Shown here piece after piece: positions 2,476 to 20,000 of a stretch of 20,000 nucleotides of DNA. A program made the position numbers and the translations under genes. Source of the stretch: an uncultured virus (IMG/VR IMGVR_UViG_3300027754_000077) (lineage: Duplodnaviria; Heunggongvirae; Uroviricota; Caudoviricetes); IMG/VR virus record IMGVR_UViG_3300027754_000077, one strand, 5' to 3'. The notes beneath the pieces are model-generated. The model was given only the letters and a program-made list of their open reading frames with translations. It was not told the DNA's origin and did not search any database. Position 1 is the first letter of the stretch; the number at the start of each line of letters is the position of its first letter.

Positions 2476-2808
2476 TTAAAATTGTGTAAACTGGTAACCC
2501 TTGATTTCTAAGTCTTTTTCTGTTGCGTCCATTTGTTTTAATACAGGCAAAAGTTTATTCATAATTTCTAATTCCCCCCAAGAAGGTGGCACATCAACTG
2601 TGAATGTTATTTTATGTGTTTTTTTCTGCTCAGATTGTGTTGAAGGGTTTGCGAAATTTTTAATGTTTGGATTTAATCCAAGATTTTCTGTTGAGTTGTT
2701 TGCGATAGATTGTGATAAATCTTGTGCAATTTTATTTAATTCACTCGATAAATCAGGTCGAGAGTGTTGAATAAGTGAAGCAGCTTTAAATAATTTTGAA
2801 AAAACCAT
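2476..2808 (-). CDS. Hypothetical protein
   Basis: 110-aa ORF, first gene of the minus-strand run, with AGG at -33. Confidence 0.7.
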   Translation of the reverse strand: MVFSKLFKAASLIQHSRPDLSSELNKIAQDLSQSIANNSTENLGLNPNIKNFANPSTQSEQKKTHKITFTVDVPPSWGELEIMNKLLPVLKQMDATEKDLEIKGYQFTQF

Positions 2809-3030
2809 ATTTATATTTTACAAGAAAGAAAAAAAAATCCTTAAAAAAAATGACCTTCACTAATTAGGAAAAGAATATATTAATTAATCTTAATTAATCT
2901 AAATTAGAACTAAGGAAAAAAAAATATGTATAATAAAATAGAGAATGCCGTCAGTGTAAGGAAAAGGGCGTAAATATTCTCACACAATCTTAATTGAAGG
3001 TTAAAAACAATTTTTAAACAAAAATAAAAT

Positions 3031-3231
3031 ATGATTAGAGCTTACAACAAAATATTGAATATTGTAAATGACAATTTTAATATTGCTCTATCTGAAGATC
3101 ATGGAGATTGTGATGATAGGATTTCAAAAAATCTTATTGAAGAAGCAAAAATACATTGTATCGTTGATGTTTTAATTGAACATGGTTATGTTGATTCAAA
3201 TCATAGAATTTTTCCAGATTTTACTTCGTAA
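3031..3231 (+). CDS. Small acidic hypothetical protein
   Basis: 66-aa ORF with AGG at -33 (2998), ending 9 nt before the RNase gene. Confidence 0.6.
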   Translation: MIRAYNKILNIVNDNFNIALSEDHGDCDDRISKNLIEEAKIHCIVDVLIEHGYVDSNHRIFPDFTS

Positions 3232-3240
3232 AGGATAAAA

Positions 3241-3657
3241 ATGAAAATAACTAAAACAATATTGAATTTAACTGCTTTTTTTGCTGTTTTTTCTTCTTCT
3301 TATTCACAAGCTACTTTTGGCAGACCACATATAAACTCTGTTATCGGACGAGTGAATGTTTTACCAAATGTAAGAGTGATTGATTTTGGAAGGTTGATAT
3401 ACCAAGGTAGAATGGATGTCAATCCTACGGTAGAAAGAATTAGATTGGGTAAAAAATTAAACCACAATAATGATGGTACATTTTTTTCTAATTCCCTACG
3501 TAAACTTCCAGTAAGCACAGATGTTCAATATTATAGAGAATTTGTCCATCAAATGAACGGTTTTCCTTTCCCAGGCTCACAAAGAGTGGTAATTGGAAAA
3601 AAAGGTGAAGTTTTTTATACAGGTGATCATTATTCAACTTTTTTTAGAGTAAGGTAA
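3241..3657 (+). CDS. Secreted microbial ribonuclease (barnase/RNase Sa family)
   Basis: Signal peptide (MKITK...AFFAVFSSSYSQA); motifs FSNSLRKLP, YYREF, GSQRVV and FYTGDHYSTF keep the catalytic Glu/Arg/His. SD-like AAGGA upstream. Confidence 0.85.
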   Translation: MKITKTILNLTAFFAVFSSSYSQATFGRPHINSVIGRVNVLPNVRVIDFGRLIYQGRMDVNPTVERIRLGKKLNHNNDGTFFSNSLRKLPVSTDVQYYREFVHQMNGFPFPGSQRVVIGKKGEVFYTGDHYSTFFRVR

Positions 3658-3676
3658 AATTGTGTATAAATAGTAC

Positions 3677-4684
3677 ATGAGTGAAATTGCATCTGAGAAT
3701 AAATTAGTTGAAAAAACACAGTCTGAAAAAGCTATTTCAAAAAAAAATGAAGTGGATGATGAGCCAGAAAAAAGAATTATTTACTTAGCATCTGAATTAC
3801 CTGGGGTCCCAGAAGTAATAGATCTTATTAATTACGATACATCCCCACCTTACATTTCTATTTTTGAGGATAAAGAAGGATTTTTGGAAGCTGATGCTAG
3901 TCTTATTTATCAGGATGAGCGCAAAACACAACGCTTGCGTCCATTATCAGGCTCAAGCTTAGATTCGAAAATACCTAAGGAAAAGGATAAAACAACATTT
4001 CGAGAAAGATTATTACATAAAAAAAGTTCATTTCTGTCTAGAGCAATTTTTTTGATTAATCTTTTCTTTTTGAAAGAAAAATACTCAAATTTTTTCACGA
4101 ATTTTAATTGGGGAATAGCCCCACAGCTAATGCCAGAAGATGTTTTTCAAGCAAAAGTTTTGAACTTGACTAAGTTTAATCGCAATAAATTGATGAAAAA
4201 GCATGGCATCAGTGAAGCAGAACTCAATTTTATTGCTTTTGCTAGGTTTCGTTATCCGTTTATAACAAGAGGTGAAGAAGAGTGGACAGAAATTGAAAAA
4301 AACGCCTTAGCATTCATTAAAAGAGGCTGGATATCAGAAGACATTAGGGGTAATTTCAAAATAAATGTTGGAAATGTTTACGAATTCAGAGATAGCATTA
4401 TTTTTTCTGAGCAATTTAAAGACATTATTTTCAAAAAAGTTTTTAAATCAAAGACTTTGCATAAGATTTTGAGGAAGATTGAAAGAAGTGCGAAAACTCA
4501 AGTTCACATTTATAATATCTCTCAAATTAGCAAACTTCCTTTCACACAATTCGGGAATAGCAATAGCTCTACACATTCTATTGTTGGTAAAAATGACTTA
4601 GAGGTGAGCAATTCAATCAAAAAAGAACCTATTTGTTTCACGAAAGATAGAATTTTAAAAGTAAAAAAAACTGAAACTTTTTAA
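3677..4684 (+). CDS. Hypothetical protein
   Basis: 335-aa ORF preceded by GTGTATAAAT-N5-ATG; no family recognised. Confidence 0.7.
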   Translation: MSEIASENKLVEKTQSEKAISKKNEVDDEPEKRIIYLASELPGVPEVIDLINYDTSPPYISIFEDKEGFLEADASLIYQDERKTQRLRPLSGSSLDSKIPKEKDKTTFRERLLHKKSSFLSRAIFLINLFFLKEKYSNFFTNFNWGIAPQLMPEDVFQAKVLNLTKFNRNKLMKKHGISEAELNFIAFARFRYPFITRGEEEWTEIEKNALAFIKRGWISEDIRGNFKINVGNVYEFRDSIIFSEQFKDIIFKKVFKSKTLHKILRKIERSAKTQVHIYNISQISKLPFTQFGNSNSSTHSIVGKNDLEVSNSIKKEPICFTKDRILKVKKTETF

Positions 4685-4731
4685 AAGGTAATTACGTCTT
4701 ATAATCATAATATTTAAAAAAGGAAACTAAA

Positions 4732-4785
4732 ATGACAAATTCGCTACGACATCTCTATCCAGCCTACGCACCCTCATCGGGGTAG
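4732..4785 (+). CDS. Leader peptide of tRNA array 1 (MTNSLRHLYPAYAPSSG*)
   Basis: AAGGAAA SD-like site, ATG 4732, TAG 4783-4785, ending 27 nt before an intrinsic terminator. Confidence 0.75.
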   Translation: MTNSLRHLYPAYAPSSG

Positions 4786-4822
4786 TGGCTAGTCGCGTAT
4801 TTGACAAGCTACAAACCCCCGA
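4777..4822 (+). promoter_or_regulatory. Antiterminator hairpin of attenuator 1
   Basis: TCGGGG (4777) pairs with CCCCGA (4817-4822, terminator 5' arm); GTGGCTAGTC pairs with GACAAGCTAC. Confidence 0.7.
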
Positions 4823-4849
4823 AGGACAAAAACTTTCGGGGGTTTTTTT
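4813..4849 (+). terminator. Intrinsic terminator (attenuator) upstream of tRNA array 1
   Basis: AAACCCCCGAAGG-acaaaaa-CTTTCGGGGGTTT followed by a T run. Confidence 0.9.
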
Positions 4850-4853
4850 ATTA

Positions 4854-4873
4854 TGAACATTGACAATTAAATA
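4854..4873 (+). promoter_or_regulatory. boxA-like antitermination element
   Basis: TGAACATTGACAATTAAATA, 17/20 identical to 9488-9507, and similar to rrn boxA TGCTCTTTAACA. Confidence 0.5.
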
Positions 4874-4965
4874 TCGTGGTGGTACCAAGGTTGAATTAAA
4901 CTCTCTCTAAGTGGTGACCCGTAAGTGGATGACTAAGGACGCCCTTCATCCAGCCGAAAATTCAT

Positions 4966-5044
4966 CTACATGTTGAGGAGTTTGGCTTACCTCGCAATCC
5001 TTGGGAGATTGAGTACGCTGGTTCAAATCCAGCCATGTAGACCA
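4966..5044 (+). tRNA. trnP: tRNA-Pro(UGG)
   Basis: Acceptor CTACATG/CATGTAG, anticodon arm CAATC-CTTGGGA-GATTG, TTCAAAT T-loop, encoded CCA. Confidence 0.9.
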
Positions 5045-5049
5045 AGTTT

Positions 5050-5134
5050 GGGGATATCGCATAGCGGCAATTGCAGAAGACTGTAAATCTTCTATCGAAA
5101 GATTTCGTAGGTTCGAGTCCTACTGTCCCCACCA
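5050..5134 (+). tRNA. trnY: tRNA-Tyr(GUA)
   Basis: GAAGA-CTGTAAA-TCTTC, long variable arm, CCA. Confidence 0.95.
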
Positions 5135-5141
5135 AATTTTC

Positions 5142-5220
5142 GTGAAATGGGACTGCTGGGGGTGGTCGCCAAGCTTGCACCTTGGATATCAGGTGGGTTC
5201 GAATCCCACATTTTACACCA
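5142..5220 (+). tRNA. trnA: tRNA-Ala(UGC)
   Basis: CCAAG-CTTGCAC-CTTGG, G3:U70 pair, A73, CCA; atypical G8 and D-arm. Confidence 0.88.
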
Positions 5221-5224
5221 TAAT

Positions 5225-5307
5225 ACCGAAGTGGCGTAATGTAGCCGCGATAGTCTTAGAAACTATTGTCTTTTGACGTGTGGGTTCAAATCCCACCTTC
5301 GGTACCA
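5225..5307 (+). tRNA. trnL: tRNA-Leu(UAG)
   Basis: ATAGT-CTTAGAA-ACTAT, long variable arm, ACCGAAG/CTTCGGT acceptor, CCA. Confidence 0.93.
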
Positions 5308-5310
5308 CAT

Positions 5311-5387
5311 AAGTGAGTAGCTTAAATGGTAGAGCTCTTTGGTTGTGACCCAGAGGCGCGTGGGTTCAAATCCCACCTCACTGACCA
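5311..5387 (+). tRNA. trnH: tRNA-His(GUG), atypical acceptor end
   Basis: TTTGG-TTGTGAC-CCAGA anticodon arm; A1:G72 mismatch, A73, no encoded G-1. Confidence 0.85.
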
Positions 5388-5701
5388 TTTTTTAAATCAT
5401 AAAATATTCTTGGAACATATTTAAAGTTCATGAAATTCATTTGTTGTGTATTTTTTTCTTCATTAAATAAAGGCTCTTCAATAACTGCTGGTGGTTCAGG
5501 TATAGGTGGCTTTATAAGCGCAGGCTCGTTAGCAGGCGAATTTTGTTTTTGGTTATATTCTCTTCCTAAAATTTTACAGGTTTCACAAGTGTTTCCAGTA
5601 AATTGCCAGATTGTGTTCCCCCCTGGCATTTGTTCAATGTAGCATTTGCAACCTTCATGTACCGGAGGTAGAATTTTTTTTTGAGAATATCTATACCACA
5701 C
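5378..5701 (-). CDS. Small Cys/His protein with MuF-like (PPxHxxCxC) motif
   Basis: PPVHEGCKC...W...TCETC; GTG start MWY; AGG at -34. Confidence 0.7.
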   Translation of the reverse strand: MWYRYSQKKILPPVHEGCKCYIEQMPGGNTIWQFTGNTCETCKILGREYNQKQNSPANEPALIKPPIPEPPAVIEEPLFNEEKNTQQMNFMNFKYVPRIFYDLKNGQ

Positions 5702-5736
5702 AATCTGAATTTACTAATTTTTTATTGGATATCCTG

Positions 5737-7449
5737 CTAAGTTGAGGGTCTATACCACGGGAATAAGGTCCCCAACTGTTTTTTAATCTTATCTGATATA
5801 TTTGGATTAATTTCAAGACTATAAGGATTTATGCGACCAAATTCTGCAAATTCTTTGATGAATCTTTCAGACAATTTTTGGTTACGTGAAATCACAGTCC
5901 AATCCACACGGTCTGCAAAATCTTTGATCAAATCCTCAGACAATTTTTGGTGCCATGAAATTTCCTTCCAATTCACACGGTCTGCAAATTCTATGATGAA
6001 ATCCTCAGACAATTTTTGTTTAGCTGAAATACTCCACCAATCCACACGGTTTTTAAATTCTCTGATGAATTCTTCAGATAGTGGTTGTTTACGTGAAATT
6101 TCATTCCAATCCACGCGGTCTGCAAATGTTCTAATTACTTTTTCAGGTATTGGATAATTCTTCAAGACTTTATCCATGTCTAAACTGTCTTCGAAATCTA
6201 AAATAAAATCTCCAGATAGTGTTTGGTATTGTGAAATTATGTCCCAATCCAAACTGTCTGCAAATTCACGAATGAATTCTTCAGACAATAGTGGGCGGCT
6301 TGAAATCAAATCCCAAGCTACACGATCTGCACTTAATCCCTTACTAAACAAGTATCTCAGCATTTCTTCTGGTGCGTTAACATAATAAAAATTATAATTA
6401 TTTATACCTTTTTCATTTATGATTTCATCAATTAATTCAAAATCTCCAGATCTCAAAGCATAGTCTTTTACACGCCAATCATCATTCCCAAGATGTTTTT
6501 TAATCTCTTCTATTGCAATGTTTCTTCTTCTGTTATAAGTGGCTCTGTATTGATTATTGCCAAAAAGCATAGCTTTTTGGCTTGGAGGGATACTAATTCC
6601 TGTATTAAGATATTGTTCAATCAAAAAATCAGCTGTATTATTTGATGTCACAGATTGTAAATTAATAATAGACTCTAATTGTTGATCAGTTAAAAGATGC
6701 CCCCTGCCTATATATTTAGATTTATATTCTGCTGGCAACTCTTCAAACCAATTTGGTGTAACATTTCTTTTTCCTAATAATTCATTTTCTTTTCTTTCTT
6801 CTTCTGTTACGGGTTTATTTACAAATATTGATGTATCTACACCATTTTGTCTAAGATAATCAAAATAAGTTTCATAATCATTGCCAAACTCAGCTATTGT
6901 CCCAGTTTGATTATTTTTGTCAGTAAGTTTTACGATACCTTTTGCTTGCATATCAACCATCACTCTTGATAATGGATCTTCTGGTGGTCTTGTCCCATCA
7001 CTTACATAGTAAAAAGTGGATTGGTAATTATCCCTGTAGGATTGAAACATTGTATTTCCAGGTTGTGATATACACCATGATGTTCCTGCACCATATCTAA
7101 TTGTATCGTTAACACTATTACAAGCAAATACTTGTATCTCTCCAGGTGTAAAATTAATTTTTTCTTTAGTTAATTCTTTTTGTTCTTTTTTTTGTTTTAA
7201 AAAAATCAATTCAGTATAAAGAGCGTCCACTGCTTCGGTAAATTCAAGAAAATCTGTGTAAAATTTATTATCGAACATCACTCCATCTTTTCTTAATTCT
7301 ATAATTGGAAGTTTATTTGCTTTATCAAGCTCATTTAGTCTCTCACTAAGTTGGGAAGTATTGTGCCCTTGATTACTGAAATAATCTGCAATCTTCCTTA
7401 TTATATGTTCTTTGCCAGCTATAATTATTTTTGCAAATCTATACCACAC
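5737..7449 (-). CDS. Tryptophan-repeat protein, paralog A
   Basis: 570 aa; N-terminal GAGTSWCIS domain and C-terminal 23-aa repeats (LSEEFIREFxDRVDWxxISxxQ). Confidence 0.9.
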   Translation of the reverse strand: MWYRFAKIIIAGKEHIIRKIADYFSNQGHNTSQLSERLNELDKANKLPIIELRKDGVMFDNKFYTDFLEFTEAVDALYTELIFLKQKKEQKELTKEKINFTPGEIQVFACNSVNDTIRYGAGTSWCISQPGNTMFQSYRDNYQSTFYYVSDGTRPPEDPLSRVMVDMQAKGIVKLTDKNNQTGTIAEFGNDYETYFDYLRQNGVDTSIFVNKPVTEEERKENELLGKRNVTPNWFEELPAEYKSKYIGRGHLLTDQQLESIINLQSVTSNNTADFLIEQYLNTGISIPPSQKAMLFGNNQYRATYNRRRNIAIEEIKKHLGNDDWRVKDYALRSGDFELIDEIINEKGINNYNFYYVNAPEEMLRYLFSKGLSADRVAWDLISSRPLLSEEFIREFADSLDWDIISQYQTLSGDFILDFEDSLDMDKVLKNYPIPEKVIRTFADRVDWNEISRKQPLSEEFIREFKNRVDWWSISAKQKLSEDFIIEFADRVNWKEISWHQKLSEDLIKDFADRVDWTVISRNQKLSERFIKEFAEFGRINPYSLEINPNISDKIKKQLGTLFPWYRPST

Positions 7450-7519
7450 AATCTGAATTTCCTAAATTTGTATCGGATATCCTGCTGCTTTCAGATTGTG
7501 TTTGGTTTGGTCTGAGATG

Positions 7520-9265
7520 TTAGGGTTTTTTAAATTTTAGCTTGTAATAAACATTGAGTTTGGTTTGTCTTGAGATTTTAGGGTTTTGTGAAATCCCATC
7601 CCAACTCAAACGTTCTGCAAATTCTTTGATGAAATCCTCCGATAGTGTTTGATTGAATGAAATCCCGCGCCAATCCACACTATCTGCAAATTCACGAATG
7701 AATTCTTCAGATAGTGTTTGTTTTTTTGAAATATTATACCAATTCACCTTATCTTTGAATTTTCTGATAAAATCTTCGGATAGTGTTTGGTAATGTGAAA
7801 TATTACCCCAACCCAAACGACCTGCAAAATCTTTGATGAAATCCTCAGATAGTTTTTGACGCCGTGGAATTTCATCCCAAATCACACGGTCTACAAAATT
7901 TCTAATTATTTTTTCAGGTATTGGATAATTCCTCAAGACTTTATCCATGTCTAAACGTTTAGCAAATTCTAAAATAAAATCTCCAGATAGATTTTGGTAA
8001 GAGGAAATATAATTCCAATACACATCATCTTTGTATCTTCTGATAAAATCTTCAGATAGTATTTGCATTCGTGAAATCTCAAACCAACCAAGACGATCTT
8101 GAAATTCTTCAATAAAATTTTCAGATAGTGAATTGTCTGAAACCCACTCCCAAGCTACATTATCTGCACTTAATCCCTTGCTGAACAAGTATCTCAGCAT
8201 TTCTTCGGGTGCTTTTATATCATAAAAATTTCTTATGTCTTTTTCATTTATGATTTCATCAATTAATTCAAAATCTCCATGTTCTAAAGCATATCTTGTT
8301 AGACTATACTTATCATTCCCAAACTCTTCTTTAATCTCTTTTATTGCAATTGCTCTTCTTCTGTCATAAGTGTCTTTGTATTGTTTTTTGCCAAAAAGCA
8401 TATCTTTTTGACTTTGAGGAATACTAACTCCTGTATTAAGATATTGTTCAATCAAATATCCAGATATTGTTGGTAAATTAATAATGAATTTTAATTGTTC
8501 ATCCGTTAAAAGATGTCCTCTTCCTATATATTTAAGTTGTAATTTTAATGGTAACTTTTCAAACCAATTTGGTGTAACATTTCTGTATTCTAATAATTCA
8601 TTTTCATTTATTTCTTCTTCTGTTAGAGTTTTATTTACAAATTGTGATGTATCTACACCGTTTTTTCTAAGATAATCAAAATAAGCTTCATGATCTTCGT
8701 CAAACTCAGCTATTGTCCCAGTGCGATTATTTTTGTCCGTAAGTTTTACGATACCATTTGCTTGCATATCAACCATCACTCTTGATAATGGATCTTCTGG
8801 TGGTCTGGTGCCATCATTTACATAGTAAAAAGTAGATTGGTATTTATTCTTATAGGATTGAAATTCTGTATTTCCAGGCTGTGATATACACCAACTTGTT
8901 CCTGCGCCATATCTAATTGCGTCATTGACATCATTGCAGGCAACTACTTGTATCTTTCCTGGTACAAAATCAATTTTTTCTTTAGTTAATTCTTTTTGTT
9001 CTTTTATTTGTTTGGAGAAAACTAATATAGTATGAAGAGCATCTACAGCTTCGGTAAATTTAAGAAAATCTGTGTAAATGTTATTATCAAACATCACTCC
9101 ATCTTTTCTTAATTCTATAATTGGAAGTTTATTTGCTTTATCAAGCTCATTTAGTCTCTCACTAAGTTGGGAAGGATCCTGCCCTTGATCGCTAAAATAT
9201 TCTGCAATCTTCCTTATTATATGTTCTTTGCCAGCTATAATTATTTTTGCAAATTTATACCACAC
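7520..9265 (-). CDS. Tryptophan-repeat protein, paralog B
   Basis: 581 aa; tandem duplicate of 5737-7449 with a closely similar N-terminal half and a diverged repeat array. Confidence 0.9.
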   Translation of the reverse strand: MWYKFAKIIIAGKEHIIRKIAEYFSDQGQDPSQLSERLNELDKANKLPIIELRKDGVMFDNNIYTDFLKFTEAVDALHTILVFSKQIKEQKELTKEKIDFVPGKIQVVACNDVNDAIRYGAGTSWCISQPGNTEFQSYKNKYQSTFYYVNDGTRPPEDPLSRVMVDMQANGIVKLTDKNNRTGTIAEFDEDHEAYFDYLRKNGVDTSQFVNKTLTEEEINENELLEYRNVTPNWFEKLPLKLQLKYIGRGHLLTDEQLKFIINLPTISGYLIEQYLNTGVSIPQSQKDMLFGKKQYKDTYDRRRAIAIKEIKEEFGNDKYSLTRYALEHGDFELIDEIINEKDIRNFYDIKAPEEMLRYLFSKGLSADNVAWEWVSDNSLSENFIEEFQDRLGWFEISRMQILSEDFIRRYKDDVYWNYISSYQNLSGDFILEFAKRLDMDKVLRNYPIPEKIIRNFVDRVIWDEIPRRQKLSEDFIKDFAGRLGWGNISHYQTLSEDFIRKFKDKVNWYNISKKQTLSEEFIREFADSVDWRGISFNQTLSEDFIKEFAERLSWDGISQNPKISRQTKLNVYYKLKFKKP

Positions 9266-9354
9266 AATCTGAATTTCAAGAAAAAAATAAAAAAACCTAA
9301 TTTTTACAGAACAAATAGGAGATTGTGTCGTATATATATAATAAGGAAATAATT

Positions 9355-9511: not shown

Positions 9512-9587
9512 GCGATATTGATGTTAATGGTTAGCATACCTGGCTTCCAACCAGATTGTGTCAGTTCAAGTCTGACATATCGCTCCA
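9512..9587 (+). tRNA. trnG: tRNA-Gly(UCC)
   Basis: GCGATAT/ATATCGC acceptor, U73, CTGG-CTTCCAA-CCAG, CCA. Confidence 0.92.
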
Positions 9588-9677: not shown

Positions 9678-9764
9678 GGAAGGTAATGCTGAATGGTTTT
9701 GGCGAATGTTTGCTAAACATTTCGGACTGAAAGGTCTCTGGTTCAATTCCAGTGCCTTCCTCCA
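9678..9764 (+). tRNA. trnS: tRNA-Ser(GCU)
   Basis: AATGT-TTGCTAA-ACATT, long variable arm, CCA. Confidence 0.9.
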
Positions 9765-9828
9765 TATACGGGGAGTGACCAGTTGGCTCTGTGCAGGAGT
9801 GGTTTTATTAAGTTTTGAATATTCACAT

Positions 9829-10335
9829 ATGAGAAAACCAAACACTCAATGCTCAATCTGCTCGAATGAAATTTATCGCAGACCATTTCAAATAAAAGCA
9901 CAAATAAAATTTTATTGTTCTAGTTGTAATCCATCTAAAAAAACAAATAAACTTGCAGAAAAGAAATGCCCAGTGTGTCAAAATTTTTTCAAACCAGATA
10001 GTTCAAAATCTACATTTTGTAGTCGTAGTTGTTCAAATAAAAGCCGTTGTGGAATTCATTACCGCAAAGATGGAAATGTATGGAATAATAAATCTAAACT
10101 CAGATTGTCAATACTTTTGACTGAGTTTGCTATTACATCTTGTATGGTTGAGGGATGCAACTATAATATCACTTATGATATTCATAGACACATACCTGGA
10201 AAAGAAGGTGGTGAATATAAAATAGGAAATATGTTTGCTATCTGCCCAAACCATCATGCAGAGGTTTCTCGCGGTATAATTATTTTGGAAAAAGTAAGCG
10301 ATAGTAAATTAAAAATAAAGGAAGTGCTGTCATAG
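9829..10335 (+). CDS. Free-standing HNH homing endonuclease with N-terminal Cys zinc-finger repeats
   Basis: DIHRHIPGKEGGEYKIGNMFAICPNHH and CPVC...FCSRSC. The start is most likely ATG 9829 (AGG at -34); the track's start at 9706 lies inside tRNA-Ser. Confidence 0.85.
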   Translation: MRKPNTQCSICSNEIYRRPFQIKAQIKFYCSSCNPSKKTNKLAEKKCPVCQNFFKPDSSKSTFCSRSCSNKSRCGIHYRKDGNVWNNKSKLRLSILLTEFAITSCMVEGCNYNITYDIHRHIPGKEGGEYKIGNMFAICPNHHAEVSRGIIILEKVSDSKLKIKEVLS

Positions 10336-10996: not shown

Positions 10997-11305
10997 TTAT
11001 GAGACCAGCTCAATTGTGTGTGGTGCATTTTCTGAAATGTTAAATAGCCCATTTCCCAATTCATATTTCTTACCAAGGTCATCAATAAATGTTTGAAATT
11101 CCATTTCAAGTTTTTCTATCATTTCTTGATTAGCTCTAAATTCTTCTTGCAAAGAAGCCATTTGTTTTTCTACATTTCTCAACATGTCAAATATGTCAGA
11201 GCGCTTGCCTTTCAAGTTTAATACCCCAGAACGAAGCTGTGCATAATTATTAAATTCTTCTTTAGTTAAAGCTTTTTCAGATTGTGTAGATGAGTTAAAT
11301 TTCAT
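10997..11305 (-). CDS. Coiled-coil hypothetical protein
   Basis: 102-aa heptad-rich ORF downstream of the amidase. Confidence 0.75.
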   Translation of the reverse strand: MKFNSSTQSEKALTKEEFNNYAQLRSGVLNLKGKRSDIFDMLRNVEKQMASLQEEFRANQEMIEKLEMEFQTFIDDLGKKYELGNGLFNISENAPHTIELVS

Positions 11306-12216: not shown

Positions 12217-12762
12217 ATGACATTAAATTGTAATATTCCCCATTTCGAATGTTATGTGAAAAAAGAATTTTTAACCAACTTTACACAATCTGATGCTTTG
12301 ATTAAAGCTAAAGCTTTTGCTATTAGTAGCACTAGAGGGCAGGTGCTGCAATTTCATGTTTTAACAGAACATGGAGCAATGTTTTCCAAACTTCCCGTTC
12401 ATTCTTTAGTATTGAAAAAAGATTATGAAAAAATGAATTTAGAAAATTTAGTCACTTATGATGCTTTTAGTTTTCATGTTTCTAATATCACTTATGATTA
12501 TTTAAAGTATTTAAGATGTGAATATTATTCGGGCGAAAAAAGAATTAAATATGATGCCACTTACTTCACTACAGTGGATTTTTATGATTCTGAATATTCT
12601 GATCATCCAGGCATAGCAAAATGCTGTCACATTTTATTTTTAGACAATGGCAACATTGCAGCTGCGCCAAACAATAGAATTTTGTGGCATGATACAGGAT
12701 TGCAGCCAGATGTTTCTAAAATAGATTATAAGCCATTGAATAAAATTTTTACAGTAGAATGA
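12217..12762 (+). CDS. Conserved phage hypothetical protein
   Basis: 181 aa; LNCNIP and GNIAAAPNNRILWHD resemble motifs I recall from uncharacterised phage proteins. Confidence 0.75.
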   Translation: MTLNCNIPHFECYVKKEFLTNFTQSDALIKAKAFAISSTRGQVLQFHVLTEHGAMFSKLPVHSLVLKKDYEKMNLENLVTYDAFSFHVSNITYDYLKYLRCEYYSGEKRIKYDATYFTTVDFYDSEYSDHPGIAKCCHILFLDNGNIAAAPNNRILWHDTGLQPDVSKIDYKPLNKIFTVE

Positions 12763-13544
12763 AAATATTTTTTGATCATATTCTTTTTCAGCAAACTGAT
12801 TATAATTTTAATCATACACTTGTTACAGCAATTTTTGAAAAAGATGAATTTGATTATGCTTTAGAAAATGGTTTTTTCCCTGATAATTTTTGGCTCAATG
12901 AAAATACCAAACATTCAATTCGATGTAAAAAACCTGGCGAATTTGTTTGGGTTCCAGTGAGATCTTCTAGAATTGTAGTGAAAGATTTTGTTTTGAATAA
13001 AAAAGATAGAAGATTGTTAAAAAATAATGTTTTAACAAAAAATGTAAAAGCCAATGAAATAAATTATGAAGAATTTTATGAAGTGTATTTGAAATATATT
13101 CGTGCAAAAAAATTTGAAGATTATAAAGACAATTTACAAGATTTTATAGATGGTTTTTGCCGAAATGATTTTGAGTTTTTAGAATATAGGCTAGACAATA
13201 AACTTATTGGTTTTTGCTTGATTCAAGTTTTTCAAAATAGTTTAGTATCATACCAATTTTGCTGGGATTATGAAAATTCTAAATTGAGTTTAGGTAAATT
13301 TTCACAAATACAAGAAGTGGAGTATGCTAAATCATTAGGATTTGATTATGTTTACATTGGCTGTGTTGCTGAAAATGCAGGAATTTATAAAATAAATTTT
13401 CCAGGCTTTGAATATTATAATTCTGGCAAGTGGCGAAGAAAAGACAGTTTAATTCAAAAATGGCTTGGAAATGATTCAGATTGTGTGAGTATTTTGGAAC
13501 TTTTGTGTTTAGAAAAAGAATATATAAAGGATTATAGCGTATAA
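12759..13544 (+). CDS. Aminoacyl-tRNA--protein transferase, ATE1/Bpt-like (ATE_C GNAT fold)
   Basis: LEYRLDNKLIG...SYQFCWD...LSLGKFSQIQEVEYAKSLGFDYVYIG...YKINFPGFEY matches the ATE C-terminal pattern. Confidence 0.8.
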   Translation: MKIFFDHILFQQTDYNFNHTLVTAIFEKDEFDYALENGFFPDNFWLNENTKHSIRCKKPGEFVWVPVRSSRIVVKDFVLNKKDRRLLKNNVLTKNVKANEINYEEFYEVYLKYIRAKKFEDYKDNLQDFIDGFCRNDFEFLEYRLDNKLIGFCLIQVFQNSLVSYQFCWDYENSKLSLGKFSQIQEVEYAKSLGFDYVYIGCVAENAGIYKINFPGFEYYNSGKWRRKDSLIQKWLGNDSDCVSILELLCLEKEYIKDYSV

Positions 13545-13561
13545 ATTGTTAATTCCAGATT

Positions 13562-14269
13562 GTGTTAAAGTCGATTTTATATTTAAATTATTTAGATAGT
13601 ATTAGCAAATACAAAAAAGCAGATACACAATCTTTATTAATTTTAAAAAAATTTGCAATGACTAACGCAGATGCATACAGAATTTTAAATGTATCTGCAA
13701 ATTCCTCACCAGAAGAAATAAAATCTGCATACAGAAACATGGCATTAAAATTTCATCCTGATATTAATCCAAATGCAAACCCTGATGAAATGATTAATAT
13801 TAATCTTGCATATGAAAAAATTAAAGAAGCACCTTTACAGAACTCACCTAGTAATCAAAGTAATTATAACAATAATAATTATCGGGATAACGATTTTGAA
13901 ATTGCTAATCGCTTAAAAGAACAAAAGGAAGATCTCAGAAAAAATTTACCTAAAATTAAAGAATTTTTTATCAACCAATTATTTAATTCTGAAATTTTTA
14001 AAAAATTATGGAGCTCTGATGAATTAATTATATACAATAAAAAAAGAAGAAAGCATTTTAAGAAAAAATATGAGAATTATGAATTTCCTCTACACGATAA
14101 TTTATATGATTTTATTTACGATTTAATAAAAATAATTGAAAAAAAATATCCATTTGCCGCTTTTTATACTACTAATTTTATGAATATTTTAGAAACCGCA
14201 AAGGTTTATGGGAAAAATCCAAAAGATGAAATAAGTAAGTATTTTGATGATTATTTCTCTGAATTTTAA
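13562..14269 (+). CDS. DnaJ (J-domain) protein
   Basis: AYRILNVSANSSPEEIKSAYRNMALKFHPDINP with an intact HPD motif. Confidence 0.9.
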   Translation: MLKSILYLNYLDSISKYKKADTQSLLILKKFAMTNADAYRILNVSANSSPEEIKSAYRNMALKFHPDINPNANPDEMININLAYEKIKEAPLQNSPSNQSNYNNNNYRDNDFEIANRLKEQKEDLRKNLPKIKEFFINQLFNSEIFKKLWSSDELIIYNKKRRKHFKKKYENYEFPLHDNLYDFIYDLIKIIEKKYPFAAFYTTNFMNILETAKVYGKNPKDEISKYFDDYFSEF

Positions 14270-14661
14270 TCTTCTGGCTCAAAATATGTTACTAGAGTGA
14301 TAGCTTCAGATTTATTTGTAAACATGGGGAAAAATCTTTCTTCTGTTCTTAAAACATAATTTACATTGTCATCTGGAATTATTTCAGCTTTTACTAGGCA
14401 ATCAATAATAGCTTTATTTACATTATCTATATCTGATTTACGAGTAAAGCCTCTGCCCTGTACAACTTTTATTTCAATTTCAATAGGAAATTTTTCAGCT
14501 TTATCTAAGCCTTCTTTCATTAAATTTATATTTAAGTCTAACCAATTTTTATAAGCTTTAGATTTAACTAATCCATATTTTTTGGATACAGAATACATTT
14601 TGTTTTTTGAAATTGGTGGACCCAAAGTAATTGATTTTCTTTTAATAATAAGATTGTACAC
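14266..14661 (-). CDS. rusA: RusA-family Holliday junction resolvase
   Basis: PPISKN and DIDNVNKAIIDCLVKAEIIPDD signature. Confidence 0.85.
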   Translation of the reverse strand: MYNLIIKRKSITLGPPISKNKMYSVSKKYGLVKSKAYKNWLDLNINLMKEGLDKAEKFPIEIEIKVVQGRGFTRKSDIDNVNKAIIDCLVKAEIIPDDNVNYVLRTEERFFPMFTNKSEAITLVTYFEPED

Positions 14662-14667
14662 AAATTA

Positions 14668-16716
14668 TTAAGAAGCCCCACCTTTCCAAAGTTGCCGGAA
14701 CATCCTTGATCTTCCACCAGGAAAAGCGTACTCGGGAACAGTTACTGTTCCCATGATTGGTCGAACAGCAATTGGAAGTGTTTTAAGCAATTCATTGAAT
14801 TCCTCCTGATACATTTTGACAGTTTCTTTCAGATTACTTACAGCATCAAAACTTCCAGATTCAGGATCCATAACTAATAATCTCCTTTCCCTTTGATTTA
14901 AACCTACCAGTAGTTGTCTTAACAAGTAATAAGTAGCCCCCACGACAAGAGTGGCATCATAGTAAAATGGAACTGTAGCTACACTGTAAATTTTGTTCAA
15001 ACCAGGTTTTGAGTTTATTGTTTGCAAGGCTAAATACAAAGCATTGTTTATTTGAGCATTTGTAAACATTTTGACATAATAAGATACAAGTAAAGTATCG
15101 TATTCTTGTATGCTGACAGGACTTCCATTGACATCAAAGAAATAAAATTTTCCTTCATTGGTAAATCTATAAAATAAACCATTGGGGTAATTATTAGTCA
15201 ATGTAGATGGATTATCAAATGGATCACTCAGCGATTGATCTAAACTATTGTAGAAACCAGTATAAGGGCTTAGAACAAACATGCTTGATCTTTGTCCGCC
15301 ATTAGTTGAACATGTAATTCTTACTTGTGGGGCAGGATCAGTAACTAAATCACCATATGCTAAAGTTGCAGATGTTCTTTGGTATCCATATAGAGGTTCT
15401 TCATCATAAACTGGAACTCTTAGAAGGGCATTTAATTCATATAAAACAGAAGATTTCAATAATAACTCATCTCCGGTAAATGGCGGTATGGATAATGTTG
15501 ACGAAAAGTCAAAATTAGTTTGTTTAACATAATATGTGTCAGCGGGATTGCCTGAATTATCAATAAATTCGTTGAGCGGCGCTGCCACGCTTGCTACAAA
15601 ATCCAATGCTGCAGGAATATATGTTAGTCGGTTATTTGCATCCCCAACAACAATGTTAAAATAGGCGTCTTCTGCAACACAATTTGGCGCGTCAAATTGT
15701 AAATAGTTTACTCCTGTTGAACCAACTGTGTTCACAATCTGACCAATTGTTGAAGTTTCACTTGCAGTGGATTCCAGTGAATATCCCACTCCATTAAAAC
15801 CATAAGTTTTTGTATTAACAGTGTATGATGCTGAAGCCACAACATTTACAGTATCGTTATAAGAATCACAAGCAACAAGAATTCCAAAATGATTATATAT
15901 TAACGCAGACCAGATTTGATCAGATGGTGTTAGTGTATAATTGAGAGCCCACTGTGTGGAAGTATTACCTAAATTTAAGTTACCATTGTAAATCCATTCC
16001 GATATATTATTATCTGAGTCAGCAATGGCTACTTTTGAGCCGTCATAAGAAGCCATTTTTTTAATTGAGTTGCTTAAGCCATTAGTTGAATCTATAATTA
16101 CACCTGTGGTGCCTGATCCAAGTAAAGCATTGTTTCCACTCATTGAAATTGAACCAGCATAAACATAACTTCCATAAGAATAATAAATATTGTCTTTATA
16201 AAAGTTAAAATCAAAATCTAAATAGTTTGTAGTGTTAATGCCTGTCAGTGTTGCATAGTGAATTGAATTGTTTTTGGTGAATGTGGAATTTGAAAAGTTA
16301 AAAACAGTTAAAAATGATGCAAACCCAACCATTATTACCTCACTTGTTCCAATTGTGCTTACTTTCAAAGAAACTGGTGAAGCTGAGCCTAAAGAGTTAT
16401 TATTTGCAAAACCTTGAGTTACAAAAGTGTCTCCTACTTTTTTATAAGCAATTAAGCCAGATTGATTTAAACAGTATAAATATGTTGTCCCAGATCCTAA
16501 AGCTAAAGGCAATCCTAAGTTTTGTGTTGATGAGTTTGTGTAATTAGATACAGTTAGAGGAAATCTGTAATCAGTGTTGGCTTGTCCTTTGAAAATTAAA
16601 GATTGTGTTGAAGGAAAATTTGTGTCTGGATCCCATGATACATATACGCCAGGATAGTGTGCGCTATTATTATATTCTCCTATTAAACCTTGCTGAAATG
16701 GTACTGCACTAGGCAT
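14668..16716 (-). CDS. Putative virion protein: beta-propeller/NHL-like region plus C-terminal neck/adaptor-like domain
   Basis: S/T/N/G-rich beta region, an NHL-like FDAPNCVAEDAYFNIVVGDANNR segment and a helical C-terminus. Confidence 0.65.
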   Translation of the reverse strand: MPSAVPFQQGLIGEYNNSAHYPGVYVSWDPDTNFPSTQSLIFKGQANTDYRFPLTVSNYTNSSTQNLGLPLALGSGTTYLYCLNQSGLIAYKKVGDTFVTQGFANNNSLGSASPVSLKVSTIGTSEVIMVGFASFLTVFNFSNSTFTKNNSIHYATLTGINTTNYLDFDFNFYKDNIYYSYGSYVYAGSISMSGNNALLGSGTTGVIIDSTNGLSNSIKKMASYDGSKVAIADSDNNISEWIYNGNLNLGNTSTQWALNYTLTPSDQIWSALIYNHFGILVACDSYNDTVNVVASASYTVNTKTYGFNGVGYSLESTASETSTIGQIVNTVGSTGVNYLQFDAPNCVAEDAYFNIVVGDANNRLTYIPAALDFVASVAAPLNEFIDNSGNPADTYYVKQTNFDFSSTLSIPPFTGDELLLKSSVLYELNALLRVPVYDEEPLYGYQRTSATLAYGDLVTDPAPQVRITCSTNGGQRSSMFVLSPYTGFYNSLDQSLSDPFDNPSTLTNNYPNGLFYRFTNEGKFYFFDVNGSPVSIQEYDTLLVSYYVKMFTNAQINNALYLALQTINSKPGLNKIYSVATVPFYYDATLVVGATYYLLRQLLVGLNQRERRLLVMDPESGSFDAVSNLKETVKMYQEEFNELLKTLPIAVRPIMGTVTVPEYAFPGGRSRMFRQLWKGGAS

Positions 16717-16756
16717 ATTATATTTTTATGGAAAAAATGTATTATGCCTTTGCGAT

Positions 16757-17581
16757 TCATTTTTCATCTTCGATAATTATTTCTTCAGCAAAATCCATAT
16801 CATCAGAATTGATGTCAACGTCAAAATCTACTGCATCTTTAATACCAAGCTCACCATCATCATCGAAATCATCAAAGCCTACGATGTCTCTTAAAAGATT
16901 TGCTTTCATAGTTACATCTTCAAGAGTAACATCTGACATATCTTTTGCTTCTTTATTTAAACTAGTCATTTGTGCTTTAACTACACCTGTGTGGTTTGCT
17001 GAATCATTAGCAGGTACAGTATAATAGGCATTTGAAGTTTTTTGATTATTTGAAGCAGTTCTTTGTGCCAAAAGCTTTGGTACAATTCCAGGATCTGATT
17101 CAACAATATGAGCAAATTCTTCAGCAGTCAATACTTCACCTTGATCTTCATGATATCTTGATGCAATTTCGTAAGCTGTTACATAAGACATAGGGTGGCT
17201 TGCTGTTCCAGAGATATCTAACTCACCACTTTTTCTTTTTCCTTTTTCTAAGTCAATGGTATCAACATCTAAAATTTTATCATCTGTTTTAAGTTTTCTA
17301 AAATTTTCTTTTTGTTGTTGCTCTCTCATAAGTTGTTTTTTTTCTTTTTGATACTGCATCTCCATTGTTTTTTCATATTCAGCTTCTGAAAGTTTTCTTA
17401 AAATTCCGTTTCTAATAGAATCTTTCAAATTTCTGGATCTTTTAATAACATTTTCATCTTCCCATGTTAAATCTTTAACTTCAGTTGGTGCAAATGTTAA
17501 ACCAATATCACTCACTGAATGCCAGCCAAGTGTAATATTTTGAACAATAAATGTTTCTCTTTCTGCGCTAGAATTTGCCAT
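16757..17581 (-). CDS. Hypothetical protein with acidic C-terminus
   Basis: Long ORF; likely start ATG 17581 after GTGTATAAAT-N5 (the track uses GTG 17596). Confidence 0.75.
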   Translation of the reverse strand: MANSSAERETFIVQNITLGWHSVSDIGLTFAPTEVKDLTWEDENVIKRSRNLKDSIRNGILRKLSEAEYEKTMEMQYQKEKKQLMREQQQKENFRKLKTDDKILDVDTIDLEKGKRKSGELDISGTASHPMSYVTAYEIASRYHEDQGEVLTAEEFAHIVESDPGIVPKLLAQRTASNNQKTSNAYYTVPANDSANHTGVVKAQMTSLNKEAKDMSDVTLEDVTMKANLLRDIVGFDDFDDDGELGIKDAVDFDVDINSDDMDFAEEIIIEDEK

Positions 17582-17595
17582 AAAGTATTTATACA

Positions 17596-17925
17596 CTAAA
17601 AATCAGATAATTTTTTGCTTCCATTTTTAAACTCATTACCGAGCCAATATTCATTTGAAATATTTTCTCTAGAATCAGGCGGTGCATCTTTTTTTCTTTT
17701 GTGCGTTTCATCTTTCATCCATTTTCCTGATTCTAATCTTTTTTCACTAGCACCAAGTTTTTTTTGATTAGAAGTTCTACCTTCTTTTGTTGAAAAAGAA
17801 TCAAATATTCTTTTCATAGTACCTTCTCCGCAAGGACAAACCATTTCTGATTTATAATCATTTAAAGAAAGGTGAATTTCATGAATCGAGTTATCACAAG
17901 TGCATCTGAATCTGAAAAGCGGCAT
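17596..17925 (-). CDS. FmdB-family zinc-ribbon protein
   Basis: MPLFRFRCTC...CPCGEGTMKRIFDSF; the family N-terminus supports ATG 17925 as the start. Confidence 0.8.
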   Translation of the reverse strand: MPLFRFRCTCDNSIHEIHLSLNDYKSEMVCPCGEGTMKRIFDSFSTKEGRTSNQKKLGASEKRLESGKWMKDETHKRKKDAPPDSRENISNEYWLGNEFKNGSKKLSDF

Positions 17926-18079
17926 AAAAAATTTGTACACTTTTATTGCGTAAAATCTCGCGATCATTTTAAAACAAACATTTACGAAGAAGTAGTTTTT
18001 AAAAATGGTAGAAAAGCATTGAAGGCTGTAAATCCAGCTAATAATGTTGTATCTTATTTAATTGTTAAGGAGTTTTAAA

Positions 18080-19072
18080 TTGCCAAATTATAGAACAATA
18101 ACAGATTTATTGAAAAAAGATGCTGGAAAATTAGCTAAAGGGATAATATACATTTTATTGGGTAAGAAGTTTGATCAACTTCTTCCAGAGTTATTAAGAA
18201 AAATTACAGGACTAAAGGAAGAAAAAAATAATACAAATGAAAAAACATTTTTAGATATTGAAAAAATTAAACAAGATTTTATGAATATGATGACAAGTTT
18301 AGGCTTGGACTCAAGTTTTTTAAAAAGTTTAACAGCCGCAGACATAGTTAGTGTACAAGATTTATCAGATCAACTTTTTTCACATTTTGGAGAAAGAGCG
18401 ATAAATTTTATCAATGACCCAAAAGTTTTTGAATTAATAGAGGCTATGAGTAATTTTGGCTCTAGCATGATAAAGCAAAAAAGTAACTATCCTGAGTTTG
18501 CAACAGATTTAATTAAATATGTTATTGGGTGTAAAAATAAAGCTATTTCAGGTAATGAAATTATAAACACATTAAATGATTTAAAGCAAAAAGCTGATGA
18601 CCCAGCTGCACCTAAATTTAATTATATTCGTGCTCGTTTACAAAACAATTTTGTTTTAGCTCAAGTTTGGCTTTTATTATATGCAATTGGTAAATTTGAT
18701 AAACAAACTTTCACGGAAGTTTCAAATATGGTAATGGAAAATGTAAAACTGCAAGGACCAAATTCAAATGGTTTTAATATAGCTTCTCAACTTGCACGAG
18801 CTAAAAGCTATACTAAATTTGTGCAATTTCTGAGAGACACTACAATTTATAGAATTGAAGTGCCAGAACGCAAAAAATTTGAAATACGCTTACAAGCAGC
18901 TTATGGATCATCATTGAAATGGACAACACTAGATGATGATGATTCAGACAACTGGATGGATAGACAACAGAAATTAAAATTTCGTTCAATGTTGACGTTT
19001 CCAAAACTCACAGAAGCTTTGGAAAGAACCATTGAAAGCTCTAAGGCAGTGGAGGAAATTAACAAACAGTAA
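18080..19072 (+). CDS. Hypothetical protein
   Basis: Long helical ORF; AAGGAG at 18067-18072 supports TTG 18080 as the start. Confidence 0.75.
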   Translation: MPNYRTITDLLKKDAGKLAKGIIYILLGKKFDQLLPELLRKITGLKEEKNNTNEKTFLDIEKIKQDFMNMMTSLGLDSSFLKSLTAADIVSVQDLSDQLFSHFGERAINFINDPKVFELIEAMSNFGSSMIKQKSNYPEFATDLIKYVIGCKNKAISGNEIINTLNDLKQKADDPAAPKFNYIRARLQNNFVLAQVWLLLYAIGKFDKQTFTEVSNMVMENVKLQGPNSNGFNIASQLARAKSYTKFVQFLRDTTIYRIEVPERKKFEIRLQAAYGSSLKWTTLDDDDSDNWMDRQQKLKFRSMLTFPKLTEALERTIESSKAVEEINKQ

Positions 19073-19911
19073 TGGGAAAAATTTTCAAGTCATCAGAAAA
19101 TAAAAGATTTGCACTTATGACAACAATGATGTTAGCTAAGCCTGCAACGCCTTCACCATTTTCTGCTGGTTCTCCAAACATTTCTGATATTCAAAACAAA
19201 ATATCCGAAATTATGGGTAAATATGAGGAAGCAAAATCAAATAAAGAAACTGCTCAAGCTATAAAAACTTCGTATGAAAAAATGATTCCCAAAATCACTC
19301 TTTCTCTCAGCCCTTGTGAAAATCAAATTTCCGAAGAAGCTCTAATAACATTCGAACAATATCAACTAAAATACGAAGAATATATTAAAGCATTACAGGA
19401 ACTAAAAGACGCAACATCACAAAACTCAGAAATAAGCAAAGATTTAATAAATTTAAAAAACACCTTAAGCCGTGGCACCCCTGATATAGCCTCAGATATG
19501 TACAGTATTAATGCATCAATTGCTAAAGTGGCAAATGAATTTAAAAAAGCAAAAAATGATCTTGAAATAGAAACTAAACAATTTCAACAATTTAAAGTTG
19601 TTTCTCCAATTAAAATGCAATTTGCAGAAACAATGACATATTATTGTCAATCTTTAGAACTTTACGAAAAAGCTAAAACAAATCCATTTGTAATGAAAAT
19701 AGCTGTTGATAGTATTTTATATTGGTCAAAATCTGGAATGAAAATTTTAAAAGATTGGAAAAATATTTACACATCTGAAAAAATTACTTTTGTTGACCCT
19801 AAACAAGGTGAATTAATTTCTAGACAGTTTGATACTTTGATAATGAAATTATTTAATAAACAACAAGAATTAATAAAAGAAAGGGCTAATGCAATCCGTG
19901 GTAGAAAATAA
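19072..19911 (+). CDS. Coiled-coil hypothetical protein
   Basis: 279 aa, TAATG-coupled to the upstream gene. Confidence 0.8.
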   Translation: MGKIFKSSENKRFALMTTMMLAKPATPSPFSAGSPNISDIQNKISEIMGKYEEAKSNKETAQAIKTSYEKMIPKITLSLSPCENQISEEALITFEQYQLKYEEYIKALQELKDATSQNSEISKDLINLKNTLSRGTPDIASDMYSINASIAKVANEFKKAKNDLEIETKQFQQFKVVSPIKMQFAETMTYYCQSLELYEKAKTNPFVMKIAVDSILYWSKSGMKILKDWKNIYTSEKITFVDPKQGELISRQFDTLIMKLFNKQQELIKERANAIRGRK

Positions 19912-20000
19912 TTACACACAATCTGGCGCTTTTGAAGAATTTGCTGAATTTAATGTTCCAGACTATATATATGAATTAAATTTCGATATCCAAGTGCCTA

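Follow-up and report, generated by a model that had tools for sequence, protein, structure and literature searches.

A dispersed nine-letter word under selection in jumbo phage genomes, and the proteins that may read it

What does a short word do when it recurs a dozen times, on both strands, in 20,000 nucleotides of phage DNA? The stretch in question, referred to here as the window, is 20,000 nucleotides of an uncultured virus of the class Caudoviricetes (IMG/VR record IMGVR_UViG_3300027754_000077), and the word is the ten-mer CAGATTGTGT. A preliminary description, made from the letters of the window alone, listed 12 exact copies and five further nine-mers and proposed a genome-wide binding or marking site of a Chi-like, HIP-like, packaging, nucleoid, or repressor kind. 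The word is real, is under selection, and is unexplained by any single known system.

All 12 ten-mers were confirmed in position and strand, as were the five further nine-mers at 1780, 2982, 9320, 13625, and 16600. In 200 dinucleotide shuffles of the window the ten-mer has a mean count of 0.05 and a largest count of 1, in agreement with the earlier estimate of well below 1 per 20 kb. Allowing up to one mismatch, CAGATTGTGT is present 28 times against 1.53 expected. The nine-mer AGATTGTGT has 17 copies against 0.35 under a second-order Markov model, and words derived from AGATTGTGT and CAGATTGTGT rank at the top among window k-mers of 7 to 12 letters. The 17 sites fall over four GTG starts (open reading frames (ORFs) starting at 5701, 7449, 9265, and 13562), inside ORFs in three frames (nine sites), in a tRNA-Gly gene (one site), and between genes (three sites), a spread that the preliminary description had given correctly, GTG starts included. 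The in-ORF sites read as TQS six times and as HNL, NTIW, and DCV. Copies 5698, 7446, and 9262 are in the heads of duplicated genes, which leaves about 10 independent copies among the 12 ten-mers.

The window is 32% G+C and contains 14 tRNAs and genes for an amidase, RusA, a DnaJ domain, an ATE_C transferase, and a Mu gp36-like head-tail adaptor. By its sequence it is assigned to a jumbo phage. A syntenic relative, G001, is 347,392 bp in length with approximately 75% nucleotide identity to the window. All whole-genome figures given here come from relatives, chiefly G001, which was read entire; the word probably extends through the window’s own whole genome as well. The genes of G001 include Pol III, DnaB, a DnaC-like loader, DnaG, a clamp and its loader, RecA, the large terminase, and four sigma-like genes. 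IMG/VR classes G001 as a provirus, and no integrase or HTH_3 gene was found among 370 G001 ORFs scanned in Pfam, a set that excludes ORFs below 70 amino acids and most ORFs of the gene array described below. G001-like DNA is present in lake metagenomes (18 runs with at least half the words), and no RNA dataset was among the matches listed for the searched stretch. GenBank phages gave no match to a 682-amino-acid window protein. The host is probably a Fimbriimonadales-type member of the Armatimonadota. This call is made from one gene, DnaK, which is closest to that group (58-62%, top 21 of 80 rows), together with two N_methyl prepilin-type genes in G001.

G001 contains 221 ten-mers, against 1 for a reversed-word control, and 336 nine-mers, 192 on the plus strand and 144 on the minus strand. 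The base before the nine-mer is C in 221 copies, A in 46, G in 35, and T in 34 (n = 336), and the remaining nine positions are sharp. AGATTGTGT is the invariant word, with the leading C a preference only. The flanks show a C/T preference at -1/-2 and no longer template. Under synonymous shuffling, the 245 G001 ORFs past 80 kb hold 132 copies against 19.5 +/- 3.9, and the 21 window ORFs hold 7 against 1.08. Since this shuffle leaves the protein intact, the true excess is understated. The preliminary description had named loss of the excess after codon-aware correction, and absence of the word outside the window, as results that would speak against a genome-wide site. Neither was found, and the general idea of such a site stands.

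The word also acts on protein sequence. Four tripeptides exceed expectation in G001, namely TQS (55 against 16.3), DCV (21 against 3.1), HNL (17 against 7.1), and RLC (10 against 2.2). The control tripeptides SQT, QST, and LNH occur as expected, and VCD occurs 7 times against 3.1. The exact word is used by 48 of the 55 TQS tripeptides. Phage proteins are bent to fit the word. Of the 12 window sites in aligned blocks, 8 match G001 exactly, compared with a background of 14%; two of them correspond to one G001 site, and seven G001 sites are missing from the window. Of 28 comparisons drawn from four relatives at conserved amino acids, 26 retain the G001 word, while other silent third positions agree at 50-60%; some sites recur among the 28 comparisons, which are thus not wholly independent. 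This conservation at synonymous sites had been proposed as a check. The sites are under purifying selection, yet they also turn over.

Spacing of the word in G001 is exponential, as for random placement (Kolmogorov-Smirnov p 0.30), and the strands are balanced past 70 kb (79 vs 92, p 0.36). The suggested search for strand or spacing bias therefore returned none. Chi and KOPS words are polar, with a strong strand bias tied to replication direction; the Chi-like option fails on the lack of strand polarity. Past 80 kb, 132 of 161 sites are inside ORFs beyond codon 10. ORF sites of G001 are divided between the coding strand (59) and the template strand (89), and the window ten-mers are divided 6 vs 6. 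Density is 0.68 per kb in non-core genes vs 0.42 in family-core genes of G001. Sites are about twice as dense at gene ends as in gene middles, with 48 in the first 150 nucleotides vs 41 in the last 150 (p 0.53, pooled relatives), and 22 sites of G001 are near gene starts where 10 would be expected (p 0.0007). The window sites showed a strong 5’ bias that was not borne out in the pooled relatives. Three TnpB genes of G001 have zero copies. An adapter, primer, or planted-word artefact was rejected, as the word lies in intact frames, in several independent assemblies, and in both homologous and non-homologous places, and is under selection.

The range of the word is narrow. Word-rich genomes are G002 (39 copies in 62 kb), G003 (65 in 167 kb), and G316 (12 in 30 kb), and word-rich loci are L245 (5 copies in 22 kb), L246, L250, L251, and L253. 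Word-poor genomes are G318 (0 in 35 kb), G319 (9 in 301 kb), G320 (1 in 358 kb), G321 (3 in 316 kb), G322 (2 copies), and G323 (1 copy), as are nearly all loci of at least 9 kb with large-terminase identity below 72%. G317 is intermediate: its 38 kb have 9 copies, and a single 2.5-kb patch accounts for 7, all on one strand. No other dispersed word of any sequence was found in G319 or G320. Between 282 and 290 kb, G319 has local GGGGTTAACC repeats every 0.4-2 kb, perhaps an early-cassette hairpin of its own. In 301 Armatimonadota genomes the ten-mer occurs about once per Mb, with a maximum of 27 copies in 5.7 Mb and none in 29 genomes; the true host may lie outside these 301. The 27 copies of the top genome (G103) are mostly near contig ends, with no prophage-like cluster. 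The word is lineage-specific and is at background in candidate hosts and in distant family members. It separates phage DNA from candidate-host DNA several hundred-fold, and no HIP-like host word was found in the 301 genomes.

One locus may have changed the word. L254 (22 kb around the large terminase) has 0 copies of AGATTGTGT and 6 copies of ACACAAAAC against 0.37 expected, and 0 of 48 control loci come near that value. Its sister, L247, has 3 copies of ACACAAAAC and 2 of the usual word in 22 kb. L254 has possibly undergone a switch of dialect, in which the genome word would be GTTTTGTGT.

On sequence grounds, the word is probably a mark of self, recognized by a sequence-specific DNA-binding protein that the phage encodes. 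Selection would keep AGATTGTGT at approximately 0.3-1 per kb, without regard to orientation, at places where the encoded protein allows it. The identity of the reader is less secure. The putative small terminase (TerS) may be the likeliest, at somewhat under even confidence. It is favored because one protein would explain the arrays at the ends described below, the value of a self-mark, and, with phage SPP1 as precedent, the promoter copies. The candidate is a 235-amino-acid protein encoded directly upstream of the large terminase, with a helical N-domain carrying C-x2-C...H-x3-H and a coiled coil, and is taken as TerS because of this position and build. Its Atlas lead is Phage_Mu_Gp27 (28% of one cluster).

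The arrangement of copies in G001 bears on this proposal. Two arrays in opposite orientation flank an early module (33.7-68.1 kb) and hold 14 of the 336 nine-mers. The left array (33.1-33.7 kb) has 10 nine-mers as direct repeats with a 46-bp period. The right array (68.1-68.6 kb) has 12 eight-letter cores in 14-bp tandem, and AT-rich DNA is found after 68.5 kb. Depth of single contigs drops approximately 2-fold from left to right at the right array in four of four lake runs, with the step located in the 68.0-68.7 kb bin. Left vs right of about 68.3 kb, depth is 38-52 vs 14-19 (X1), 31-35 vs 11.5-16 (X3), 25-26 vs 10-14.5 (X4), and 12-16 vs 7-10 (X7). These figures are contig means and give no copy number. 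The prediction of a terminal repeat was made before the right edge was examined, and the comparison covers contig depth at the right edge only, with 32 of 1,070 pieces. In published work, doubled depth signals a direct terminal repeat (PMC5557969). Among jumbo phages, XacN1 has a long terminal repeat of 66 kb and CBB one of 22 kb, and a review describes the formation of ends in terminal-repeat phages as poorly understood (PMC13595956). The right array is a likely genome end and may be the edge of a long terminal repeat.

Outside the arrays, the dispersed remainder has a density of 0.33-1.04 per kb, with the minimum of 0.33 in the replication module, and 149 copies past 70 kb are inside ORFs. 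The early module itself holds 63 copies. Most of its small genes have their own hairpin and a TTCCAG-17-TATAAT cassette, with the ATG a few bases past the -10 box, and are apparently leaderless. Many contig joints link these cassettes, perhaps through gene shuffling or ambiguity of the assembly graph. The promoter pattern TTCCA[GT]-16..18-TA[TC]AAT has 74 matches in G001. The word is in the spacer of 29, same-facing in 28, and an inverted copy touches the -35 box in 11. The idea that the word sits in the spacer in either orientation was set aside as weak, given the shared direction of 28 of 29. Because 45 of 74 matches lack a spacer copy, the early promoter would work without the word on sequence grounds. 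None of the 8 G002 promoters carries an exact spacer copy. A scan of viral contigs for the promoter cassette returned G001 and 12 single matches that were judged to be chance.

A further 70 copies lie in a tandem array of 85 small paralogous ORFs (G001 14400-33100, median unit 167 bp). The units begin with M/L-I-N-T-D-C-V and have Q-V-W-type repeats, and the nine-mer is present in 68 of 85 heads. A nucleosome-like spacing near 167 bp was rejected, as it is merely the period of this array.

In the proposed mechanism, TerS would place the end cuts by binding the tandem arrays that border a terminal repeat of approximately 35 kb. The dispersed copies, at about 600 ten-mers per Mb of phage DNA and about 1 per Mb of host DNA, would let it distinguish the two. 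Word-rich DNA would be packaged more often, and the word would spread, as uptake sequences do in competent bacteria. As a side role, the same late protein would damp early transcription through the copies in early-promoter spacers and over start codons. The TerS of SPP1 reportedly represses its own synthesis. It binds a pac region that overlaps promoters PL1 and PL2 (PMC6316719). The wider form of this idea is distributed self-recognition, in which the packaging machine would read hundreds of dispersed copies in place of one pac or cos site, the resulting bias would have pushed the word into genes and into a tRNA, and the word would change in step with its reader from one sister lineage to another (AGATTGTGT here and perhaps GTTTTGTGT in L254). 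This form is speculative and rather doubtful.

The TerS tree is consistent with the proposal in part. Six word-carrying loci group together (FastTree 0.92; IQ-TREE 74/81), and all have [VI]NTTIK. L254 is nested among word carriers on the large-terminase tree (99/95), and its TerS is on a long branch. Several results weigh against TerS as the reader. Approximately unbiased (AU) tests of the placement of the L254 TerS are mixed (p 0.039 and 0.19, four near-identical rows excluded). Support for the TerS clade is weak, and the clade may merely mirror common descent. L247 is inside it with only 2 copies in 22 kb, and G317, whose 38 kb contain 9 copies (7 in one patch), is outside it. TerS homologues occur throughout the family, G319 and G320 included, yet neither of these two genomes has a dispersed word of any sequence. 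The predicted recognition helix of TerS does not separate word-rich from word-poor phages. A Foldseek search of the TerS model against PDB and BFVD gave nothing under E 0.001 (the top BFVD match is Bacillus phage G gp434, E 0.056), and VIA-align of the model matched only the coiled coil, with no tie to a solved TerS. The depth step could equally arise from a second phage with nothing but the early region in common, and the equivalent junction in G002 has single copies and no array. Binding of the word by TerS is a proposal from sequence, and published TerS sites are local, not genome-wide. The packaging option of the preliminary description thus gains from the arrays at the depth step and from the TerS tree, with its reader protein only a candidate.

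A different reader, unlikely but deserving weight, would be a 335-amino-acid protein of the window (3677..4684, plus strand) with a predicted MarR/SarA-like winged-helix core (approximately residues 152-243). It would act as a genome-wide silencer or nucleoid-type organizer, similar to the stoperator system but unoriented, shutting early promoters by occupying their spacers and coating the rest of the genome. The predicted model has a core pLDDT (predicted local distance difference test) of 59-84 per block of ten and 49 for the whole. Its best match is SarA (Z 6.6, root-mean-square deviation 3.0, 83 aligned), and most of the top 50 rows are MarR-like; the Z score is below the caution line of 8, and the model was built on 9 sequences. 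The protein has 9 homologue clusters. The gene is present only in word-rich genomes (the window, G001, and G003), with no profile match in G319 or G320, which do hold TerS and the replication helix-turn-helix (HTH) protein, and the block that holds it is absent from the syntenic position in G320. This distribution is known from three genomes, and a control gene found the same two relatives. In G001 a perfect word lies over a TATAAT-like hexamer before the winged-helix gene; the site is imperfect in the window and in G003. The 29 of 74 G001 spacers with the word, the 11 with a copy just upstream, and the excess near gene starts argue for this reader. The G002 promoters, none of eight with the exact spacer word, argue against it, as does the last 150 nucleotides of genes being as site-rich as the first. 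No integrase was found among the 370 G001 ORFs, so there is no evident reason for long-term silencing. The usual binding of MarR proteins to palindromes, as dimers, is also counted against it. The repressor or nucleoid option raised earlier keeps the promoter copies and the winged-helix gene as candidate support.

It is improbable that the word is an analogue of a DnaA box or iteron, sites that form direct repeats next to an unwinding element, close to the initiator gene or within it. An HTH protein (G001 104065-104661) would then bind the arrays as origins, and the dispersed copies would be restart or titration sites. G001 does carry DnaB, the DnaC-like loader, DnaG, Pol III, and the clamp and loader. 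The HTH gene lies between primase and Pol III, HTH_36 scored in 4 of 17 family members (best E 1.3e-4), and the array at 33.2 kb is made of direct repeats, like SPP1 origins (PMC6316719). An HTH_36-like protein is also present in the word-free G319 and G320, and the arrays are 35-70 kb away from the HTH_36-like gene. The lack of strand bias, a word density that is lowest (0.33 per kb) in the replication module, and a depth step that would fit a genome end better than an origin all tell against an initiator.

The word could also mark nicking, modification, or recombination with no stable binder, as in a nick consensus, a Mom-type system, or a HIP1-type repair drive, and spread by biased conversion while being copied on by promoter cassettes and gene arrays. 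The chance of this is similarly slight. In its favor, duplicated units and the early module account for approximately 40% of G001 copies (small-gene array 70, early module 63), the promoter spacer consensus is already near the word, and a Mom-family gene, RecA, and an SbcCD-like pair are encoded in G001. Such a drive is hard to reconcile with the 149 in-ORF copies past 70 kb under purifying selection and with flanks that lack a longer template. One-off variants are not depleted as conversion predicts and appear to resemble decay towards A/T. Published nick words are on one strand only (PMC3517423).

Mimicry of a host-protein site, as a decoy, Chi-like protection, or uptake signal, is very improbable, for although early promoters resemble host sigma-70 promoters and host proteins would meet these sites, the word has no polarity and occurs only about once per Mb in the 301 Armatimonadota genomes, where the top genome’s 27 copies are mostly near contig ends. 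Searched as profiles against PDB sequences, alignments A1, A4, and A5 returned nothing useful, and A4 returned nothing in Pfam.

The individual window sites are described from left to right. The nine-mer AGATTGTGT at 1780..1788 (plus) is in ORF 1155-1826(-) and reads H-N-L; G001 has one mismatch, and the site is present in G003. The ten-mer at 2631..2640 (plus) reads T-Q-S in ORF 2476-2808(-) and is absent from this place in G001. The nine-mer at 2982..2990 (minus) is intergenic with divergent genes on either side, and is identical in G001. The ten-mer at 5607..5616 (plus) reads N-T-I-W in ORF 5378-5701(-), is identical in G001, and is present in G003. At 5698..5707 (minus), a ten-mer lies over the GTG start (GTG TGG TAT) of the same ORF and is identical in G001. 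The ten-mer at 7446..7455 (minus) is over the GTG start of ORF 5737-7449. Its inverted partner, at 7492..7501 (plus), is intergenic and 46 bp away, and the pair brackets the upstream region of that ORF. The ten-mer at 9262..9271 (minus) is over the GTG start of ORF 7520-9265 and aligns with the same G001 site as copy 5698. The M-W-Y heads (GTG TGG TAT; starts 1826, 5701, 7449, and 9265) can also be read as TGTG-N-TATAA, which resembles an extended -10 element, and gene heads of this kind may be easy to turn into the word.

The nine-mer at 9320..9328 (plus), identical in G001, is just upstream of a TATAAT-like hexamer, presumably a promoter element, before the second tRNA block. The ten-mer at 9552..9561 (plus) is inside tRNA-Gly(TCC) (9512-9587) and covers the 3’ anticodon arm, the variable loop, and the start of the T stem. 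The G001 tRNA-Gly is without the word, so it was gained or lost there while the T stem stayed paired. At 11278..11287 (plus), the ten-mer spans codons 7-9 of ORF 10997-11305(-) as T-Q-S and is identical in G001 despite differing flanking codons. The ten-mer at 12283..12292 (minus) reads T-Q-S in ORF 12217-12762(+) and is identical in G001. Close to the 3’ end of ORF 12759-13544(+), the ten-mer at 13477..13486 (plus) reads D-C-V; G001 is identical and has a second copy 19 bp on. The ten-mer at 13556..13565 (plus) is over the GTG start of the DnaJ-domain ORF 13562-14269, and the nine-mer at 13625..13633 (minus) reads T-Q-S in this ORF, which is on the plus strand. The nine-mer at 16600..16608 (plus) reads T-Q-S in ORF 14668-16716(-), with one mismatch in G001. 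The last ten-mer, at 19916..19925 (minus), reads T-Q-S at the 5’ end of the next plus-strand gene (frame from 19898), which leaves the window. A second, weaker dispersed word is also present in the window, with GTATCGT at 9 copies against 0.61 expected and GTATCGTAA at 4 against 0.06.

Several neighboring genes were recorded. A PF00545-family ribonuclease gene with a signal-peptide-like start (3241-3657) adjoins the winged-helix gene. ORFs 5737-7449 and 7520-9265 are tandem paralogues with C-terminal repeats of approximately 23 amino acids (phrog_3532); G001 has similar genes at 68.9-76.6 kb and at 303 kb instead. An HNH endonuclease-like gene (9706-10335) is within the tRNA cluster and is absent from that place in G001. 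The gene at 12759-13544 is ATE_C arginyl-transferase-like. G001 has ClpS (272502-272798), ClpP (324774-325349), and a ClpX-like ATPase, which with ATE_C possibly form a phage-encoded N-degron proteolysis route. G001 further has IF3, NusG, a tmRNA, and a polyA/CCA-type polymerase, in addition to the Mom-family gene and the SbcCD-like pair, and its 61-amino-acid ORF at 86263-86448 presumably resembles ribosomal protein bS21.

Phage words known so far have tens of copies; here there are hundreds, which are selected and reshape the proteome. The word points to a self/non-self or genome-organizing mechanism for which the phage gives up some freedom in coding. Should the terminase be the reader, distributed packaging recognition would represent a new means of keeping host DNA from being packaged. 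Should the reader be the winged-helix protein, that protein would be a phage nucleoid-type regulator. The system offers one nine-mer, three candidate proteins, and sister lineages with the word, without it, and with a variant.

A literature search of partial coverage, without supplements, found no account of this word and no phage word at such density. The stoperators of cluster A mycobacteriophages (PMC9283540) are likewise asymmetric phage words placed across the genome at promoters and gene boundaries, and are read by a phage protein. They number about 26 thirteen-mers against 336 nine-mers here, and the present copies are mostly in ORFs and are not oriented with transcription. A stoperator set was rejected since orientation and intergenic placement both fail. 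Stoperator phages are temperate and have an immunity repressor; no integrase or cI-like repressor was found among the 370 G001 ORFs scanned in Pfam. The 17-bp repeats of cluster O mycobacteriophages (PMC4351075) are also unexplained and unoriented, with about a third in coding regions; they are 34 palindromes against hundreds of asymmetric nine-mers, and the accessible text reports no effect on the proteome. TerS recognition boxes (SPP1 pacL/pacR, PMC6316719; review PMC13595956) are repeated short sites at the place of cutting, and those of SPP1 overlap promoters. The end repeats of phage T7 also belong to this comparison. Known boxes are local, whereas approximately 95% of copies here are away from the two arrays. 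The nick words of phages tf, T5, and phiKMV (PMC3517423) are nine-letter, dispersed, and rare by chance, but have 8-14 copies on one strand only. The word here is equal on both strands, which tells against a phage nick consensus.

The closest statistical likeness is to the DNA uptake sequences of Neisseriaceae and Pasteurellaceae (PMC2817400). These are short asymmetric words with hundreds of copies, many in ORFs, with inflated tripeptides and a preference for poorly conserved places, and they mark self DNA. Uptake sequences are abundant in the chromosome of the competent bacterium and are read by a pilin-type receptor; the two prepilin-type genes of G001 are the only genes of a related kind noted here. 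The word described here differs in being phage-borne and absent from candidate hosts and in having end arrays, and its tripeptide inflation is 2.4-7-fold vs approximately 2-fold for uptake sequences. It behaves statistically most like a bacterial uptake sequence but is not one, because candidate hosts lack the word.

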